NCBI GenBank assembly: GCA_040389085.1
Contig: JAZKAP010000023.1
Coordinates: forward strand, 7,556-39,555
Source of the DNA: Pseudomonadota bacterium
Lineage (GTDB): Bacteria; Pseudomonadota; Gammaproteobacteria; Burkholderiales; Burkholderiaceae_C
DNA length: 32,000 nucleotides
Direction: 5' to 3'
Position numbers and translations under genes: made by a program. Positions 7,742 to 14,699 of the stretch are shown here, one piece after another. Below the pieces are notes generated by a model. The model had not been told where the DNA came from, did not search any database, and was given only the letters and a program-made list of their open reading frames with translations. The stretch's first letter is position 1. The number at the start of each line of letters is the position of its first letter.

Positions 7742-8110
7742 TTACTTCCCAGCGCCCTCGGCCTTCACGGTGAAGGTATAACCGTAATCGACCGTATGGC
7801 CATCGACCGAGAGCACCCGGTATTTCACGGTATAGGTACCCGGGCTGAGCATGGGCAATTCCAGCGCCAGCAGTTTGGGGTCGTCCTTGTCAACCCGGGC
7901 CTTCTGGGTCGTGACCGGGCCGGCACCTTCCCTGATCACGCTGATCGTCGCGTACTCGGGCTCCAGCCGCTCGTTGAACCACAGCCTGACCTGCGGCGGC
8001 GGTTTGGACAGCGTCGCCCGCCGTGCCGGTTCGGACTTGACCAGCGCGGCATGCGCCAGCGCCGTGCCAGTGGCGGCCATGGCCAGCAGCGCGACGAGCC
8101 ACGAAACCAT
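7742..8110 (-). CDS. copC: CopC-domain periplasmic copper-binding protein
   Basis: ORF 7742..8275 trimmed to ATG 8110. Signal peptide MVSWLVALLAMAATGTALA is followed by HAALVKSEPARRATL (mature N-terminal His as in CopC). The C-terminal segment GTYTVKYRVLSVDGHTVDYGYTFTV is the CopC signature. Confidence 0.88.
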   Translation of the reverse strand: MVSWLVALLAMAATGTALAHAALVKSEPARRATLSKPPPQVRLWFNERLEPEYATISVIREGAGPVTTQKARVDKDDPKLLALELPMLSPGTYTVKYRVLSVDGHTVDYGYTFTVKAEGAGK

Positions 8111-8124
8111 CTTGCGCCGGGCGT

Positions 8125-8580
8125 TCACTCGGCGCGCACCCAGGTTTGCGAGCGCCCTATCATCGGCACGCCGATGAAACCTCGAACCTCGAGTTTCTTG
8201 CCCCCGTCGGCGGGCCGCAGACGCAGCCGGTAGGTCGACCCATTCTCCGGATCGAGCACCTCGCCGCCGTCCCACAGCGCAGCGTCAGCGGTATTGTGTT
8301 TGATGCCGCGAATAATCGTCATCCCGACCACCGGCTTGTCCTTGCGGTCGTCGGTGCATTTCGTGCAGACGGTCGCCGCCTTGGGATCGAGGAGTTTCTC
8401 GATCACGCCACTGAGCACGCCAGCCGATTCGCTGATGCGTATCAAGGTTTTCACGGTCTTGCCGTCGTCGTCAATCGTCTTCCAGAGACCAACAGGTGTG
8501 TCCTGCGCAAAAGCAGGAGCGGCTGCCCAGGCAAGGAAAGCGATGGCGAGTACGTGTTTCAATGTTTTTTCGATTTTCAT
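8125..8580 (-). CDS. DUF2147 domain-containing secreted protein
   Basis: ORF 8125..8658 trimmed to ATG 8580 (alternative 8595). Signal peptide MKIEKTLKHVLAIAFLAWAAAPAFA, then QDTPVGLWKTIDDDGKTVKTLIRI, CTKCTDDRKDKPVVGM and GGEVLDPENGSTYRLRL..........LEVRGF, as in DUF2147 proteins. Confidence 0.8.
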   Translation of the reverse strand: MKIEKTLKHVLAIAFLAWAAAPAFAQDTPVGLWKTIDDDGKTVKTLIRISESAGVLSGVIEKLLDPKAATVCTKCTDDRKDKPVVGMTIIRGIKHNTADAALWDGGEVLDPENGSTYRLRLRPADGGKKLEVRGFIGVPMIGRSQTWVRAE

Positions 8581-8868
8581 GAGGCTTTCTTTCATTGTGG
8601 GTAAACGGGAAACGACTTCATGGGCCGATGACGCTATTACTTCAATAGCTGCTTGCACTCATATTCATTGGCTTCAGGGACGATTTGACTGTACGTTTAT
8701 GGTTTGGCCTTACCCTGATTCGGCACGACCACCACACTCACCTTCTGTACCGAGGATTCGATGGTCTTGTGGGACGCATCGGACCAGTACGCGCTGGCCG
8801 GGGTGCGCCAGCGAGATCAGCGCACGCACTCGCGCACGGTCACTCGGCGCCCTCCTTCGCGCTATCGG

Positions 8869-11034
8869 TTATTTCTTGGGCCGGATCGCATCGGCCGTGC
8901 CCTGGATAAAGGCCTTGATCTTCTCCACATCGTCTTTGCTGAGCTTGCCCGTGAAGTCAGGCATGCCCCGGTTCATGGCCGGGCCTTTGAAGACGAACTT
9001 GTCGAGGTTCTCGATATAGGGGGCTCCGATGTAGCCCAGGTTGGGAATGTTGCCGCCGCGGTCCACGCCGGGCACGCCGTGGCAGAACACGCAGTTGCTC
9101 ACATACAGCGCGGTGCCGGCCGGCACCTGGGCTGGGTCGTATTTCACGCCCGCCACCAACTCGTCCATGCGGTACTTCACAAACTCGGGCATCGGCGCCT
9201 TGCCGCCCACCGCGAAGGTATAAACCGTGCCCGGCCCCTGCCGGTCGGTGGCGCGCTGCGCCAAGCCATACACGCCGCCCCAGCCGACCGCAATCGACAC
9301 ATACTGCTTGCCGTCCACCAGGTAGGTCGATGGAGCGGCCACCACGCCAGTGCCTGTGGGCGACTCCCAGAGCTTCTCGCCGGTGCGTGCATTGAAGGCG
9401 ATGAAGCGGCCATCGGCCGTGCCCTGGAATACCAGGTCACCCGCGGTGGTCAGCGTACCGCCGTTCCACGGCGACACATGCTCCTGCGTCCAGGCGGCCT
9501 TTTGCTGCACAGGGTCCCAGGCGATCAGGCGGCCGAACGGGGCACTCTTGGGTGGCTCGACGTTGGCAAACGTCGCGATGTTCCAGCCCATGTTGCTGTG
9601 CGGCTCACCCGGGCGCACGCTGTTGAACTTCCAGTCCTTGTTGTCCATCAGCGTGAGCGGCACGCCCTGCGCCGGCAGGTAGACCAGCCCGGTCTGCGGG
9701 TTGAACGACATGGAGTGCCAGTTGTGCGCACCGAACGCGCTGGGAATGATCTCGCGCGGCCGGTCGGCCACGCGCGCGTTGGGCGTTTCGATCGGGCGGC
9801 CGTCCTTGTCGTAGCCCGTCGCCCAGTTCACGTCGACGAAGTTCTTGGCCGAGATGAACTTGCCGTTGGTACGGTCGATCACGAAGAAGAAGCCGTTCTT
9901 CGGCGCATGCAGGATCACCTTGCGCGGCTTGCCTTCTATCTTCAGGTCGGCCAGGATCATCGGCTGGGTCGAGGTGAAGTCCCAGTTGTCGCCGGGCGTT
10001 TGCTGGTAGTGCCAGACGTACTTGCCGGTGTCGGGGTTGAGCGCGACGATGGACGCGAGATACAGGTTGTCTCCGCCCGCGGGGCTGCGTTTGCTGCGCG
10101 CCCAGGGCGAGCCGTTGCCGGTGCCCACATACATCAGGTTCAGTTTGGGGTCGAAGGTCAGTGTGTCCCAGGCGGTGCCGCCGCCGCCGGCTTCCCAATA
10201 CTTGCCTGCGGGGTCCCAGGTCTTGGCGGCCTTGGCCATGGACTCGTCCTCGAACGGTTTGCTCGGGTCGCCGGGCACCGTGAACCAGCGCCATTTTTGC
10301 TCGCCGCTGGCGGCGTCGTAGGCCGTGATGTAGCCGCGCACGCCGTACTCGGCGCCGCCGTTGCCGATGATGACCTTGCCCTTGAACACGCGCGGTGCGC
10401 CGGTGATGGTGTACGAGAACTTGCGGTCGATGATGGTGTCTTTTTCCCAGACCTTGTTGCCGGTGGCCGCATCGAGCGCGATCAGCCGGCCGTCGTAGGC
10501 GGCGACGAAGACCTTGCCCTGGTACAGCGCCACGCCGCGGCTCACCACGTCACAGCAGCCCTTGTAGCCGGCCTCGCGCGGGACCTGCGGGTCGAAGGTC
10601 CAGATCTTTTTGCCGCTGCGCACATCAATGGCGTGGACGATGCTCCACGAAGCGCTGACATACATGATGCCGTCCACCACCAGCGGCGTGGCCTCGACGC
10701 CGCGCGTCGATTCGAGGTTGTACGACCAGACCAAGCCCAGGTCTTTCACGTTGGCGGCGTTGATCTGGTTCAGGCGCGAGAAGCGCGTCTCGGCATAGTC
10801 CAGGCCGTAGCTGGGCCAGTCGTTCGTGCGCGCCTCGTTGGCGCGGATAAATGCACCATCGACCTTCTTGGTCACGGCCGCAATGTGCGCCTTCGAGCCC
10901 TTGGCCCCCTCGGCCATGGCGGCTGGCGCTGCCGTGGCGAACAGCGAAGCCACCGCCAACGTCAAGACCATGGCAGGCCATTTTGCAGATTTCCCTTGCC
11001 GGGCCTGACTCGCCGGGTTCATCCAACTATTCAT
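8869..11034 (-). CDS. Type II quinohemoprotein alcohol dehydrogenase (PQQ beta-propeller plus C-terminal cytochrome c domain)
   Basis: ORF 8869..11166 trimmed to ATG 11034 (AAGGAG SD 6 nt upstream; alternative ATG 11052). Signal peptide ends AAMA. Motifs are NDWPSYGLDYAETRFSRLNQIN, vicinal-Cys motif YKGCCDVVSRG, repeated W-propeller motifs, and a C-terminal CVFCHGVPG haem c site. Confidence 0.92.
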   Translation of the reverse strand: MNSWMNPASQARQGKSAKWPAMVLTLAVASLFATAAPAAMAEGAKGSKAHIAAVTKKVDGAFIRANEARTNDWPSYGLDYAETRFSRLNQINAANVKDLGLVWSYNLESTRGVEATPLVVDGIMYVSASWSIVHAIDVRSGKKIWTFDPQVPREAGYKGCCDVVSRGVALYQGKVFVAAYDGRLIALDAATGNKVWEKDTIIDRKFSYTITGAPRVFKGKVIIGNGGAEYGVRGYITAYDAASGEQKWRWFTVPGDPSKPFEDESMAKAAKTWDPAGKYWEAGGGGTAWDTLTFDPKLNLMYVGTGNGSPWARSKRSPAGGDNLYLASIVALNPDTGKYVWHYQQTPGDNWDFTSTQPMILADLKIEGKPRKVILHAPKNGFFFVIDRTNGKFISAKNFVDVNWATGYDKDGRPIETPNARVADRPREIIPSAFGAHNWHSMSFNPQTGLVYLPAQGVPLTLMDNKDWKFNSVRPGEPHSNMGWNIATFANVEPPKSAPFGRLIAWDPVQQKAAWTQEHVSPWNGGTLTTAGDLVFQGTADGRFIAFNARTGEKLWESPTGTGVVAAPSTYLVDGKQYVSIAVGWGGVYGLAQRATDRQGPGTVYTFAVGGKAPMPEFVKYRMDELVAGVKYDPAQVPAGTALYVSNCVFCHGVPGVDRGGNIPNLGYIGAPYIENLDKFVFKGPAMNRGMPDFTGKLSKDDVEKIKAFIQGTADAIRPKK

Positions 11035-11057
11035 GCTGGCTCCTTTTTTCATGCTGT

Positions 11058-11669
11058 TTACTTTTGAGGTATGTCGGTAATTAGGGTTCTGCGCCGCTGT
11101 CCGGTGAGTCGGTACAAAAGCCAGGCCAGGCCGATAAAGAGCAAGGGCAATGGCAGGTATTTCCAATAGTTGCGCACGCCGACGCGAAACGGAAAGACCG
11201 AGTTCTCCGTCTTTCCGCTGGCCGCATCCGTCGCGCTGAGCAGGCCGATGTACCAGCCGGGCTCGCTGAACCTGTGGTCCAGGGTGACCGTGCCGCGCGG
11301 ATAAGCCTTGGCCGGCAGCGCCACCATCGTCCGCTGCGCGATCCTGCCCGTATCGCCAAGATCCTCGTAGCGTGCCTTGGCACCAAGCCCGTCCGCGTCA
11401 CGCAGGATGCGAAATTCGACCACGCGTTCGCGCAGTGCGGGCTGGATGAAGTCAATCACGATCACTGCCCGTCCGACTTCGGGGATGTCCTCGCAGAACT
11501 CCTGACTGGCACGGTGCTCGGGCTGGTAGCCGGCGAAATGGGCCCGGTCGCTGCCGATGCGCAGAATGCACTTGTCGTCTTCAATGCCGACCCCGCCATG
11601 CGCCCATGCCGATGCCGCAGCCACTGCAAGCAGCGCGGAACTCAACGTTCGGATCAGTCGCATCTGCAT
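11058..11669 (-). CDS. Secreted protein with a C-terminal membrane anchor; candidate PmoD/AmoD-like CuMMO accessory protein
   Basis: ORF 11058..11807 trimmed to ATG 11669, which shares one base with the xmoB TGA (TGATG). Signal peptide MQMRLIRTLSSALLAVAAASAWA is followed by HGGVGIEDDKCILRIGSDRAHF. C-terminal TM helix is YLPLPLLFIGLAWLLYRL. Position and topology match PmoD/AmoD; homology itself is not verified. Confidence 0.55.
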   Translation of the reverse strand: MQMRLIRTLSSALLAVAAASAWAHGGVGIEDDKCILRIGSDRAHFAGYQPEHRASQEFCEDIPEVGRAVIVIDFIQPALRERVVEFRILRDADGLGAKARYEDLGDTGRIAQRTMVALPAKAYPRGTVTLDHRFSEPGWYIGLLSATDAASGKTENSVFPFRVGVRNYWKYLPLPLLFIGLAWLLYRLTGQRRRTLITDIPQK

Positions 11670-12910
11670 CACCCTCCGAACAGCGGAATCATCGGTCCGC
11701 TGATCTCTACTGGATAGCGACGGCCCTGCGCATCGAAGAAGAACAGCATGCCGGCGACCACCGCATCCGGGGAAGCGATCATCGTCGTCATGCGCTGCGT
11801 CTCCCACATCGCATCGTCCGCATAGACCACGATCTTCTTCGTTTCTCCTGGATTGATCGAGCCGCCCTCCACGCGCAACGCGTCTGTCGCGACCAGATCA
11901 TCCTGGTCTTTTGGTGTGACCTTCAGCACCGCGGAATTGATAAAGCGAAGACCGCCTGAGGCAAACTCACCGACGCTCACGGGACTCTTCCCACTGTTGG
12001 TTACCGTGAGCTCGATACGGAAGCTCCGGCCCGGGATGCGGTAGCGTGCATCATCCATAGTGACCAACACTGGCGAAGGCTCCATCTTCAGGGTAGATGT
12101 CCTTATCTTGCCGGTCTGTAGCGGCGTCGTGACCGGCCAGCGCTCGGTGGCATAGAAAAACCCGCCAGCGATAAGCATCAGCGTAGCCACCAGGATAACC
12201 AGTGCCGCCTGACGGTCGCGCGTGGTGATCATGTCGTCGGCGTTCTCACCCAGCGCGCTGGCACGCCGGAACCTCGGCAAGATCAAAGGCACCTTGGTCA
12301 GCCAATAGCCAAACCAGACCAAACCAAGCACAACCCACACCGCTGACCAGGAAGCCGCATTAGCAAAGCCGTGCGTTTCCAAATCAAGGGTTTGGCCGAA
12401 CAACGTTTTGATGCTGTTTTCAAATGCCGCCGGGTCGCCCCCGACCTCGACCCAGATGCCGGGGCCAATCATCGGCCCGGCATCCAGCACGTTGATGATG
12501 GGATGCAGGTGATAGCGGCCGGGTGTGCGGGCCTTCAGCGTGATCTCGAAGTTGTACTGCTCACCGCGCTTATACGAACTACTGCGTATGGTGGGCACAC
12601 CGTTGACGCGGCTGTCCAAGCGCACAAAAGAAGGCCCGGGTACGCCCACATTGAGATAGGCGGTGTCCTCGATGGACGCGACATGCTCCGGCCAGGACAG
12701 GGAAGGAACAAAAGTTCCCTTGACGACCAGAATTTGGTTGACATCGAGCTTGCGCGTCGACAAATCCACGTCAAACCAATGCACGGTGCGCATACGCAAA
12801 GCGGGTTGCTGAGCCTTTTCACCATGGGCATACGTTGGCGTTGCCGAAAACGTGACCAGGACGACGATCAGGCCTTGAATGACTGCGAACAATTTTGCAA
12901 TGAAATTCAT
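11669..12910 (-). CDS. xmoB: Copper membrane monooxygenase subunit B (PmoB/AmoB family)
   Basis: ORF 11669..12967 trimmed to ATG 12910 (AAGGAAGAGG SD). Signal peptide ends PTYA, followed by HGEKAQQPALRMRTVHWFDV. RYHLHPIINV carries the His-x-His. Two central TM helices separate two periplasmic beta-rich domains, as in PmoB. Confidence 0.93.
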   Translation of the reverse strand: MNFIAKLFAVIQGLIVVLVTFSATPTYAHGEKAQQPALRMRTVHWFDVDLSTRKLDVNQILVVKGTFVPSLSWPEHVASIEDTAYLNVGVPGPSFVRLDSRVNGVPTIRSSSYKRGEQYNFEITLKARTPGRYHLHPIINVLDAGPMIGPGIWVEVGGDPAAFENSIKTLFGQTLDLETHGFANAASWSAVWVVLGLVWFGYWLTKVPLILPRFRRASALGENADDMITTRDRQAALVILVATLMLIAGGFFYATERWPVTTPLQTGKIRTSTLKMEPSPVLVTMDDARYRIPGRSFRIELTVTNSGKSPVSVGEFASGGLRFINSAVLKVTPKDQDDLVATDALRVEGGSINPGETKKIVVYADDAMWETQRMTTMIASPDAVVAGMLFFFDAQGRRYPVEISGPMIPLFGG

Positions 12911-12920
12911 GACCTCTTCC

Positions 12921-13673
12921 TTAAACAACTTTTCGCAGCCACACGGCCTTGACACCGAGTGAGCCAACCCAGGCCCAGAACCAGAGGCTTAATATGGTCA
13001 GGAAGCCCGCGAAAACCGCCGTCAACGGCGTGACTGCATCGCCGAATGTCCTCAAAGTACTCTGTTCGATGATGCGCACATATTCGGGCATGGCAGTGCG
13101 GATGTACTCAAAACCCATCACGTCCGCCACCGTCATCAGCGTGCCGTGCATTTCGACCGGCACCATGAACGGAGCCAGCAGTGGCCAGTTCATTGGGTAC
13201 AGAAGCAGCCCCGAAAGAAAGCCAGCAAAAATTCCCGTGAAAAACCAGCTGCGCGTGAGCAGCAAGGTGCAATCGATCAACAGACCAACGCCAATGAAAG
13301 TCGACGGCAGTACCATGTTCATCGGAAAACCCGCGAACTCATGAAAGTTCAAGTACCGGCTCAACCAGCCCGTCAGCGTCAGCCCGATAATGCTCAGCGT
13401 CGCACCCAGAGGTATGCGCAGCAAATGCCAAAAGGCATAGCCAAATACGCCGGGCAGAATAACCAGCACCAATGGCGTGACCAGCGGCCAATAACGGCGG
13501 TCCCGCCAATCGATCCAGTAATCCCAGTCCCCCACCAGCAAGGCAAACTGGAAGGCGAATACGGACCCCAGAAGCACCACAAAGAGCGGAATGACCACCC
13601 AGTCAACCTGGGCATCAACGCGGGCCGCTTCCTGCGGGCTAAAGGCGGCCTCAGCCGGAGTCAAAACGGACAT
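12921..13673 (-). CDS. xmoA: Copper membrane monooxygenase subunit A (PmoA/AmoA family)
   Basis: 250 aa; ATG 13673 with a TGGAGA SD. Carries the family signature GDWDYWIDWRDRRYWPLVTP and is polytopic and hydrophobic throughout. The stop lies 10 nt before the xmoB start. Confidence 0.95.
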   Translation of the reverse strand: MSVLTPAEAAFSPQEAARVDAQVDWVVIPLFVVLLGSVFAFQFALLVGDWDYWIDWRDRRYWPLVTPLVLVILPGVFGYAFWHLLRIPLGATLSIIGLTLTGWLSRYLNFHEFAGFPMNMVLPSTFIGVGLLIDCTLLLTRSWFFTGIFAGFLSGLLLYPMNWPLLAPFMVPVEMHGTLMTVADVMGFEYIRTAMPEYVRIIEQSTLRTFGDAVTPLTAVFAGFLTILSLWFWAWVGSLGVKAVWLRKVV

Positions 13674-13759: not shown

Positions 13760-14539
13760 TCAGAGAGCCGCTTGAAGCTCGGCTTGCGGCGACACCGACT
13801 GCTTCGTCAGCTCGGCCACGCGACCCAGTATCTGCAGGAGCAATCCACCAGCCGCAAACGTAGACCAGCCCAGCAACACAAAGCCATAGTGAATCGGCGC
13901 GGAGAACAACTCCTCGGCATAGAAGAAAGTGTGACCCCACTCGTTGAAACCCACGTTGGGCATGATCATGAACGCGCCGGCGACGATGATCGCGAACGGC
14001 AGCGAAATGCGATTGCCAAAGAGCGGGATGCGCGTGTGAGCGTAGGCGAACGAGATGAAGCCCCAAAACACCAGCAAAGGCACGCAGAAATAAAACAGGC
14101 CAATGTGAGTAGGGGTGAAATCAGTATCCCTAATCGTCACCTGATGCCATGCTGCGTCAGCCTCCGTGTAGATTGAGCCCGTCACATAAAACATGATGGC
14201 AAATAGCAAAATTTGAGCCATCAGCACGAACAGGCGCCGTAATTCCTCTCGCGGCCCGATTCGGGAGAAATCGCGCTCTCGTGTGCGCCAGAGATACACC
14301 AGCGTGCCGGTGCCCAGCGCGCCAATCAGCAGCAACTGCCCGAACAGCAGACGCATCCAGTAAACGTCGAACTCAGCGCTGAAATAGTCGAGCCCGTAAG
14401 TGAACGCAGTCGCTTCTGAATAGATGCGATAAACGCCGAACAGCACCGCAAAGCCCAGCAGTGCAACAAAGAATTTGGCCCACGGAGCCCCTGTGGCCGC
14501 CCGCGCAGCTCCAGTGATGTTGGTAGAACTCGTTTTCAT
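13760..14539 (-). CDS. xmoC: Copper membrane monooxygenase subunit C (PmoC/AmoC family)
   Basis: ORF 13760..14686 trimmed to ATG 14539 (AGGAGA SD). Motifs are EADAAWHQVTIRDTDFTPTHIGLFYF and NEWGHTFFYAEELFSAPIHYGF (Asn/His, then a His 14 residues later), the hallmark PmoC/AmoC motifs. Confidence 0.93.
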   Translation of the reverse strand: MKTSSTNITGAARAATGAPWAKFFVALLGFAVLFGVYRIYSEATAFTYGLDYFSAEFDVYWMRLLFGQLLLIGALGTGTLVYLWRTRERDFSRIGPREELRRLFVLMAQILLFAIMFYVTGSIYTEADAAWHQVTIRDTDFTPTHIGLFYFCVPLLVFWGFISFAYAHTRIPLFGNRISLPFAIIVAGAFMIMPNVGFNEWGHTFFYAEELFSAPIHYGFVLLGWSTFAAGGLLLQILGRVAELTKQSVSPQAELQAAL

Positions 14540-14659
14540 CGTCTTGTCTCCTGTTGTGTGAAGTAAACGTCGGGCCATTGAAAGCCTGCTTGTCGAATGG
14601 CGCGATCGGACTTCGTGCCAATGTGCTGGGAATGTTAGAGCCAAGCGTCTGCAACTACA

Positions 14660-14699
14660 CCTAACTTTCGTTAGGGTGTTTTTCATGGCGCATCGCCAT
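14660..14699. promoter_or_regulatory. Two perfect short palindromes in the xmoC / aldehyde dehydrogenase divergent region (candidate operator sites)
   Basis: CCTAAC-TTTC-GTTAGG at 14660-14675 and ATGGCG-CAT-CGCCAT at 14685-14699. Both lie within the 222-bp region between ATG 14539 (minus) and ATG 14762 (plus). Confidence 0.3.

Follow-up and report, generated by a model that had tools for sequence, protein, structure and literature searches.

A PmoD/AmoD-family protein encoded directly after xmoCAB, with arginine at the position of a CuA methionine ligand

The window, that is, the whole stretch of 32,000 nucleotides of DNA that was analysed, carries on its minus strand the genes of a copper membrane monooxygenase (CuMMO), in the order xmoC, xmoA and xmoB, followed by a fourth gene, xmoD, whose product is assigned below to PmoD/AmoD, the accessory protein with the tightest link to the copper membrane monooxygenases. 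The name xmoCABD is reportedly in use for operons of this kind in Polaromonas and Rhodoferax. Further downstream, Pfam models identify a PQQ alcohol dehydrogenase (ADH) with a cytochrome c domain, a DUF2147 protein, CopC and a CopD-cytochrome c-AhpC/TSA fusion (Table 1). A preliminary description of this DNA had assigned xmoD the operon position of PmoD/AmoD, and the Pfam-identified genes upstream bear this out, because xmoD lies directly after xmoB. The genome (4.7 Mb in 38 contigs) holds one xmoA and one XmoD copy.

Table 1. Features of xmoD and its operon, with positions in the window
Feature	Position	Strand	Basis
xmoC	13760-14686	-	Pfam AmoC, 7e-72
xmoA	12921-13673	-	Pfam AMO, 6e-76
xmoB	11669-12967	-	Pfam Monooxygenase_B, 2e-122
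GGAGG Shine-Dalgarno, within final xmoB codons	11673-11677	-	read from sequence
xmoD, PmoD/AmoD-family ORF	11058-11669	-	homology and predicted fold
Signal peptide, residues 1-23, predicted cleavage AWA-H	11601-11669	-	AF2 helix 2-21, hydropathy
His24, predicted N-terminus of the mature protein (Fisher et al.: "H1")	11598-11600	-	
Periplasmic cupredoxin-like beta-sandwich domain, residues 24-166	11172-11600	-	AF2, Foldseek
Motif C34-x7-R42-A43-H44-x14-C59 (Cx9HxnC class)	11493-11570	-	alignment to PmoD
Cys34 codon	11568-11570	-	
Arg42 codon	11544-11546	-	
His44 codon	11538-11540	-	
Cys59 codon	11493-11495	-	
C-terminal transmembrane helix, about residues 171-188	11106-11159	-	AF2 helix, hydropathy
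Basic cytoplasmic tail of XmoD	11061-11105	-	
PQQ alcohol dehydrogenase with cytochrome c domain	8869 to 11034 or 11052	-	Pfam
DUF2147	8125-8658	-	Pfam
CopC	7742-8275	-	Pfam
CopD-cytochrome c-AhpC/TSA fusion, 697 aa	5648-7741	-	Pfam

Translation of the minus strand reproduces the 203-aa open reading frame and the residues quoted for it in the preliminary description; the frame ends on a TAA stop at 11058-11060. The start had been placed on the last base of the xmoB stop, and this is confirmed in the sequence, where the TGA (11669-11671) and the ATG (11667-11669) have one base in common within TGATG and the junction reads ...TTC GGA GGG TGA TGC AGA TG... The nuance to be added is a second, in-frame ATG 6 nt downstream (11661-11663), from which the product would have 201 aa (ATG 11663) instead of 203 aa (ATG 11669). 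The Shine-Dalgarno sequence stands 3 nt from the xmoB-overlapping ATG and 9 nt from the second, which is the start in most database gene models of orthologs and, given its more usual spacing, may be the better placed. The tight coupling of xmoB and xmoD holds for both starts, because each lies no more than 6 nt from the xmoB stop. At the other end of xmoD, the start of the ADH gene is ambiguous: an ATG at 11052 lies 5 nt past the TAA without a Shine-Dalgarno sequence, and an ATG at 11034 lies 23 nt past it with AAAGGAG; judged from these signals, the latter is the more likely start. A long ORF beginning with TTG at 11166 overlaps xmoD and is probably an unused ADH start.

A chance reading frame can be excluded for xmoD, because the query finds 152 homologs in 90 % clusters at E ≤ 1e-3, 571 clusters at 50 % identity in a phmmer search of 1.84 billion representatives at the same threshold, and 203 loci with homologs in species genomes. 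Public annotations of the orthologs read "hypothetical". One 99-aa database protein (P0140) is 95 % identical to XmoD residues 3-68 and diverges thereafter, probably because the gene call, made on a metagenome contig, contains a frameshift or is truncated.

The architecture first proposed for XmoD, namely a signal peptide, a periplasmic domain and one C-terminal transmembrane helix, is that of the PmoD/AmoD family and is seen alike in the sequence, the AF2 model and the hydropathy profile. The model places helices at residues 2-21 and 173-189, and the most hydrophobic stretches are residues 5-23 and 172-190. The signal peptide ends in ...ASAWA-HGG and obeys the AxA rule; among the species-level loci, the residue at -1 before the histidine is A, G, S or T in all 79 that were scored from the set of 80, with mostly A, V, L, G or S at -3, a pattern that points to cleavage at AWA-H. 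Since the tail beyond the second helix is basic (QRRR), XmoD would be oriented N-out, C-in. The AF2 model, based on an alignment of 119 sequences, has a mean pLDDT of 86, with values above 90 across most of the periplasmic domain and below 50 at residues 24-28, around His24. When this predicted structure is searched against the PDB with Foldseek, the top matches are chains A and B of 6CPD, the soluble domain of PmoD (TM score 0.85-0.87), the best of which has E 1.7e-12, a target TM score of 0.87 and an rmsd of 2.5 Å; the matches that follow are at least four orders of magnitude weaker. Those to AA10 LPMOs and CrdA, with TM scores of 0.3-0.4, were discarded as too weak for use.

The sequence comparisons lead to the same protein. 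In a phmmer search against all PDB sequences, 6CPD is the single match (E 7e-19, XmoD residues 33-164), and the profile-profile comparison that the preliminary description had proposed, carried out with hhalign between 119 XmoD homologs and 32 Methylocystis-type PmoDs, gives a probability of 99.9 % (E 8e-33) over an alignment that extends from the signal peptide through the transmembrane helix. Because phmmer, hhalign and the AF2/Foldseek comparison agree, the homology to PmoD/AmoD, which the preliminary description had stated conditionally, is firmly established by sequence, profile and predicted fold, and the structure prediction that it had also proposed points the same way. Two further family traits are present: the equivalents of Cys41 and Cys65 are Cys34 and Cys59, and xmoCAB lies immediately upstream. 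With a cut-off as loose as E 10, Pfam and NCBIfam give no match to xmoD except one at 0.15 that carries no meaning; this is not evidence of novelty, because those libraries have no model for the PmoD/AmoD family. The alternative of a new CuMMO-coupled periplasmic protein unrelated to PmoD is ruled out by the 6CPD matches and the hhalign result.

Among named genomes, the best match to XmoD is a Polaromonas sp. MAG (100 %), followed by Polaromonas, Rhodoferax and Hydrogenophaga loci at 88-95 %. One of these is from a cultured isolate, Polaromonas eurypsychrophila AER18D-145 (locus L005), which carries the same operon with an XmoD that is 93 % identical and was isolated from uranium tailings (PMC9022503). 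In BLASTP comparisons with other members of the family, the closest named relative is AmoD/orf5 of N. europaea (NE0941; 40 %, E 9e-38); a second Solimonas XmoD of the Cx8MH type gives 41 % over a shorter span, and lower values are obtained for N. oceani AmoD (35 %), MCA2130 (35 %), Methylocystis PmoD (30 %), MettrDRAFT_0370 (28 %) and AmoE (26 %). In a quick maximum-likelihood (ML) tree of 126 proteins, some on long branches, XmoD falls in a group of 44 rows, all of them "x-A-H" Cx9H proteins (SH-aLRT 86), which is nested in a starred clade of 54 rows.

The residues on which the copper chemistry of the family depends can be compared directly. XmoD contains C34-ILRIGSD-R42-A43-H44 and, within QEFCEDIP, a second cysteine, C59; in the phmmer and hhalign alignments, C34, R42, H44 and C59 align with Cys41, Met49, His51 and Cys65 of PmoD. 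The C-x7-M-x-H motif cited in the preliminary description is the published CuA ligand set Cys41/Met49/His51, and its reading of XmoD as C-x7-R-x-H, with arginine replacing the methionine ligand, is upheld by both alignments. According to Fisher et al. 2018 (PMC6189053), CuA needs Cys41, Met49 and His51, in that C41S, M49A and H51A each abolish it, and Cys65 is conserved yet is no CuA ligand. The same study classed 860 PmoD homologs by motif, with shares of 29 % for CxnC only, 23.6 % for Cx7MxHxnC, 22.2 % for Cx9HxnC, 13.4 % for Cx8MHxnC (the AmoD type) and 7.9 % for Cx8MxnC (PMC6189053). With C34-x9-H44-x14-C59 and no methionine at either flanking position, XmoD belongs to the Cx9HxnC class. 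It stands outside the CuA subclass (Cx7MxHxnC; PmoD and AmoE), having Arg42 at the Met49 position, where its clade has R, K, Q, T, L or V and never Met, and outside the AmoD/orf5 subclass (Cx8MHxnC), having Ala43 before the histidine. The Arg-for-Met motif is accordingly not new, the Cx9HxnC class having already been defined by Fisher et al. 2018.

Membership in this class says little about descent. Across the starred branches of the ML tree, the Cx9H label requires at least six changes, and MettrDRAFT_0370, which shares the label, pairs elsewhere with a Cx8MH protein (99*); a grouping of MettrDRAFT_0370 with the x-A-H proteins is rejected by an AU test (p 1e-5), for which the group was picked once the tree had been seen. 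On this quick tree, the Cx9HxnC class is polyphyletic, a grade and not a clade. Since MettrDRAFT_0370 sits in another clade, its copper data can serve XmoD as an analogy only, and a direct transfer of its biochemistry is weakened by the 28 % identity and the separate placement.

Conservation around the motif is uneven. Cys34, His44 and Cys59 are invariant in 119 homologs, and the invariant or near-invariant positions comprise H24-G-G-V, D32, C34, H44, G47, Y48, Q56-E-F-C59-E-D-I-P, D73 and R80. At the Met49 position, the 119 close homologs have R 88 times, K 17, Q 6, T 3, L 2 and V 1, and the 78 parsed species-level loci have R in 47, K in 22, Q and T in 3 each, and L, E and S in 1 each, so that Arg or Lys makes up about 88 %; the residue that follows is Ala in 72, Ser in 5 and Met in 1 (L082). 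Even a Rhodoferax ortholog that is 88 % identical to XmoD has Gln at position 42. As a basic residue is preferred there yet replaceable, position 42 is unlikely to be a ligand or essential, and the idea of Arg42 as an essential new ligand was rejected in view of the Gln in Rhodoferax and of T, L, E or S elsewhere. The AF2 model predicts a beta-strand (E41-48) that contains both R42 and H44; since these are spaced by two residues, they should face the same side. Speculatively, a basic side chain at position 42 could be the partner of the conserved EDD segment or modulate the site.

The other conserved feature of note is the residue that follows the signal peptide. HGG occurs in 80 of 80 loci, and His24 is invariant in the homolog alignment; together with the small residue at -1 in the 79 scored loci, this makes His24 the predicted mature N-terminus throughout. 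AmoD, AmoE, MCA2130 and MettrDRAFT_0370 all have a histidine at the H1 position, and the in-operon PmoD of alpha-methanotrophs matures to EGGAGPEAMSMGNMC..., with Glu at H1 and a Met-rich insert. Within the x-A-H proteins, a well-supported subclade (P0133, P0155, P0163 and P0172) has GGGV in place of HGGV after the signal peptide; the predicted N-terminal His is lost there, and the Cys, His and Cys are kept.

Gene order was compared over the 80 species-level loci that were fetched, which come from Comamonadaceae, Nevskiales, Porticoccaceae, other Gammaproteobacteria and Alphaproteobacteria. An xmoB homolog lies directly upstream of xmoD in every one of them, with xmoA and usually xmoC ahead of it. 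The median spacing between the xmoB stop and the His1 codon is 77 nt, about one signal peptide, and the values range from 25 to 241 nt with one outlier; the tight packing of xmoB and xmoD is thus common, not universal. In L082, the interval between the xmoB stop and the Cys codon of xmoD measures about 990 nt, and the motif reads R-M-H (the AmoD type); an extra gene may have been inserted there. Downstream, copC and copD are found in 29 of the 80 loci, nearly always straight after xmoD. Only in Comamonadaceae/Burkholderiales loci (L003-L010) does a PQQ-ADH gene separate xmoD from the cop genes; in Nevskiales and others (L011-L082), xmoD is followed directly by copC-copD, as in alpha-methanotroph pmo operons, and in several of these loci an ADH homolog is encoded on the other strand, about 4 kb further downstream. 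Many distant xmoCABD loci match the CopD-cytochrome c-AhpC/TSA-like fusion at 33-42 % identity over some 1.6-2.0 kb, and the fusion therefore appears to be conserved with this operon type. XmoD diverges together with the monooxygenase: its identity covaries with that of XmoB (Spearman 0.83) and XmoA (0.73), which fits inheritance as one unit, and relatedness alone would give some correlation too.

From these observations, XmoD is best read, with a probability of roughly 70 %, as the PmoD/AmoD-family fourth gene product of a Polaromonas short-alkane-type xmoCABD operon and as a membrane-anchored periplasmic copper-handling partner without a Met-dependent CuA centre. Homology, predicted fold, topology, motif state, synteny and co-divergence with XmoB are observed, whereas the copper binding, ligands and role that this reading attributes to XmoD are inferred. 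The protein would be exported by Sec and, after signal-peptide cleavage, become a type-I membrane protein, with a cupredoxin-like domain of about 143 aa held in the periplasm by a single C-terminal helix. Copper would be bound at the C34/H44/C59 cluster, whose counterparts are neighbours in the 6CPD structure, probably with help from carboxylates in the vicinity and from His24 as the free N-terminus; lacking both the Met49-type methionine (Arg42) and the AmoD-type methionine (Ala43), XmoD would not form a dimeric, Met-dependent CuA. Its presumed task would be that of a non-stoichiometric, transient partner in the copper loading, maintenance or maturation of the CuMMO, acting with CopC/CopD. 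[quoted passage not shown] The supernumerary helix of these structures was considered as the PmoD transmembrane helix and rejected, because in the publications it is attributed to different small proteins.

A narrower proposal on the copper site itself can be offered tentatively, as possible but doubtful. The [R/K]-A-H clade of XmoD might use a histidine-brace-like Cu(II) site, to which mature His24 contributes its free amino group and its imidazole, together with His44 and a carboxylate (Asp32 or Glu57/60); such a site may even be ancestral to the PmoD/AmoD family as a whole. On that view, because PmoD of alpha-methanotrophs begins with Glu once mature, its Met-rich CuA would be a derived special case. 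Every published PmoD construct began with a Ser-Met that came from the vector (PMC6189053), and an N-terminal His site would for that reason not have been visible in published work.

Other roles have to be weighed against copper handling. XmoD might instead be an electron-transfer cupredoxin that supplies the monooxygenase with electrons taken from the ADH cytochrome c domain or a different donor in the periplasm; the cupredoxin-like predicted fold, the ADH/cytochrome c gene starting 5-23 nt past the xmoD stop and the literature proposal of PmoD as an electron-transfer partner all suit such a role. However, the ADH adjoins xmoD only in L003-L010, with copC-copD directly after xmoD elsewhere, XmoD has no type-1 ligand set and an incomplete CuA set from which the Met is missing, and the signals of the Cx9H homolog that was tested are those of type-2 Cu(II), which leaves electron transfer unlikely.

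Very unlikely, in turn, is a protein that is no metalloprotein in vivo, in which Cys34 and Cys59 form a structural disulfide and XmoD, anchored in the membrane, helps to assemble the CuMMO or to organise its arrays. The two cysteines of PmoD are indeed disulfide-bonded in the 6CPD crystal, where His51 lies beside Cys41 (PMC6189053), XmoD matures in the oxidising periplasm, and the strict synteny with xmoB and the tightly coupled start codon would suit an assembly factor; if the disulfide were the native periplasmic state, Cys34 would be no ligand. Against this, each of the four PmoD motif classes that were tested proved able to bind copper, the invariant His24, Asp32, His44, Glu57 and Glu60 are typical metal ligands clustered round the cysteines, copC-copD are frequent neighbours, and PmoD is missing from native-membrane CuMMO structures. 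Finally, a dimeric CuA-like Cys2His2 core whose axial Met is absent or substituted by another ligand would agree with the invariance of Cys34 and His44, which occupy the in-plane CuA positions of Cys41 and His51, but this is the least probable of the three, given that M49A abolishes the CuA of PmoD, that CuA was seen only in Cx7MxH proteins, that the variable position 42 (R/K/Q/T/L/E/S) offers no conserved ligand and that the Met-rich N-terminal insert of PmoD is missing.

The XmoD feature is real, was correctly interpreted in the preliminary description and is essentially known: the locus reveals no new kind of protein, as the family, the motif class and an in-operon Arg ortholog are already in the literature. 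What is added here is modest, namely the coherence of the clade, its strict synteny with xmoCAB and a predicted N-terminal His beyond the reach of Ser-Met constructs. The 80 of 80 loci show that alkane-type CuMMOs of non-methanotrophs retain the D gene as strictly as those of methanotrophs and nitrifiers. XmoD forms a coherent clade of its own, without methionine ligands and with an invariant predicted N-terminal His, distinct from the Cx9H protein tested so far. Because a cultured carrier exists in AER18D-145, this clade offers a convenient route to the conserved core of the family without CuA chemistry.

Among the known systems, PmoD of Methylocystis sp. Rockwell (Met49242_1452; 6CPD; PMC6189053) shares with XmoD the family, the predicted fold and the architecture, as well as two cysteines and a histidine and a gene placed right after that of the B subunit and often followed by copC-copD. 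The two differ in that they are only 30 % identical, Met49 corresponds to Arg42, the Met-rich AMSMGNMCMVM before the first Cys of PmoD contrasts with HGGVGIEDDKC in XmoD, and the mature N-terminus is Glu in PmoD and His in XmoD; owing to these differences, XmoD is not expected to form CuA. The AmoD (orf5) proteins of Nitrosomonas europaea (NE0941 and NE2060) and Nitrosococcus oceani (Noc_2500), which are of the Cx8MHxnC class, resemble XmoD in their AHGG mature N-terminus, their EFCEDIP second-Cys motif and their in-operon place after amoB, and Noc_2500 even has Arg at the Met49 position (YRMH). They have Met before the His (MH), where XmoD has Ala (RAH), and the host of XmoD belongs to neither the nitrifiers nor the methanotrophs. 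Arginine at this position is listed for the in-operon Nitrosococcus oceani AmoD (YRMH), and lysine for MettrDRAFT_0370 (VKVH), by Fisher et al. 2018 (PMC6189053).

MettrDRAFT_0370, the sole Cx9H protein tested biochemically, has KVH, is encoded outside a pmo operon and is 28 % identical to XmoD; it bound 1.40 Cu per protein and gave type-2 EPR signals without CuA, and of the four motif classes tested, all of which bound copper, CuA was formed only by Cx7MxH proteins (PMC6189053). Supplementary Data 2 of Fisher 2018 also lists Solimonas aquatica Ga0070002_104146 in the group "other", within a CuMMO operon, with H1 = H, R at the Met position (YRA), H2 = H, the Cx9HxnC motif and the neighbourhood "cabdcd" (PMC6189053). 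This protein, found here as locus L034 with the gene order xmoCAB-D-copC-copD, is an ortholog of XmoD with 53 % identity and the same motif state. Closer still are the Rhodoferax and Polaromonas loci L004-L007, whose XmoD proteins are 88-93 % identical. Alkane-utilising members of these same two genera are said to carry xmoCABD clusters, and the gene order of the four loci is that reported for them.
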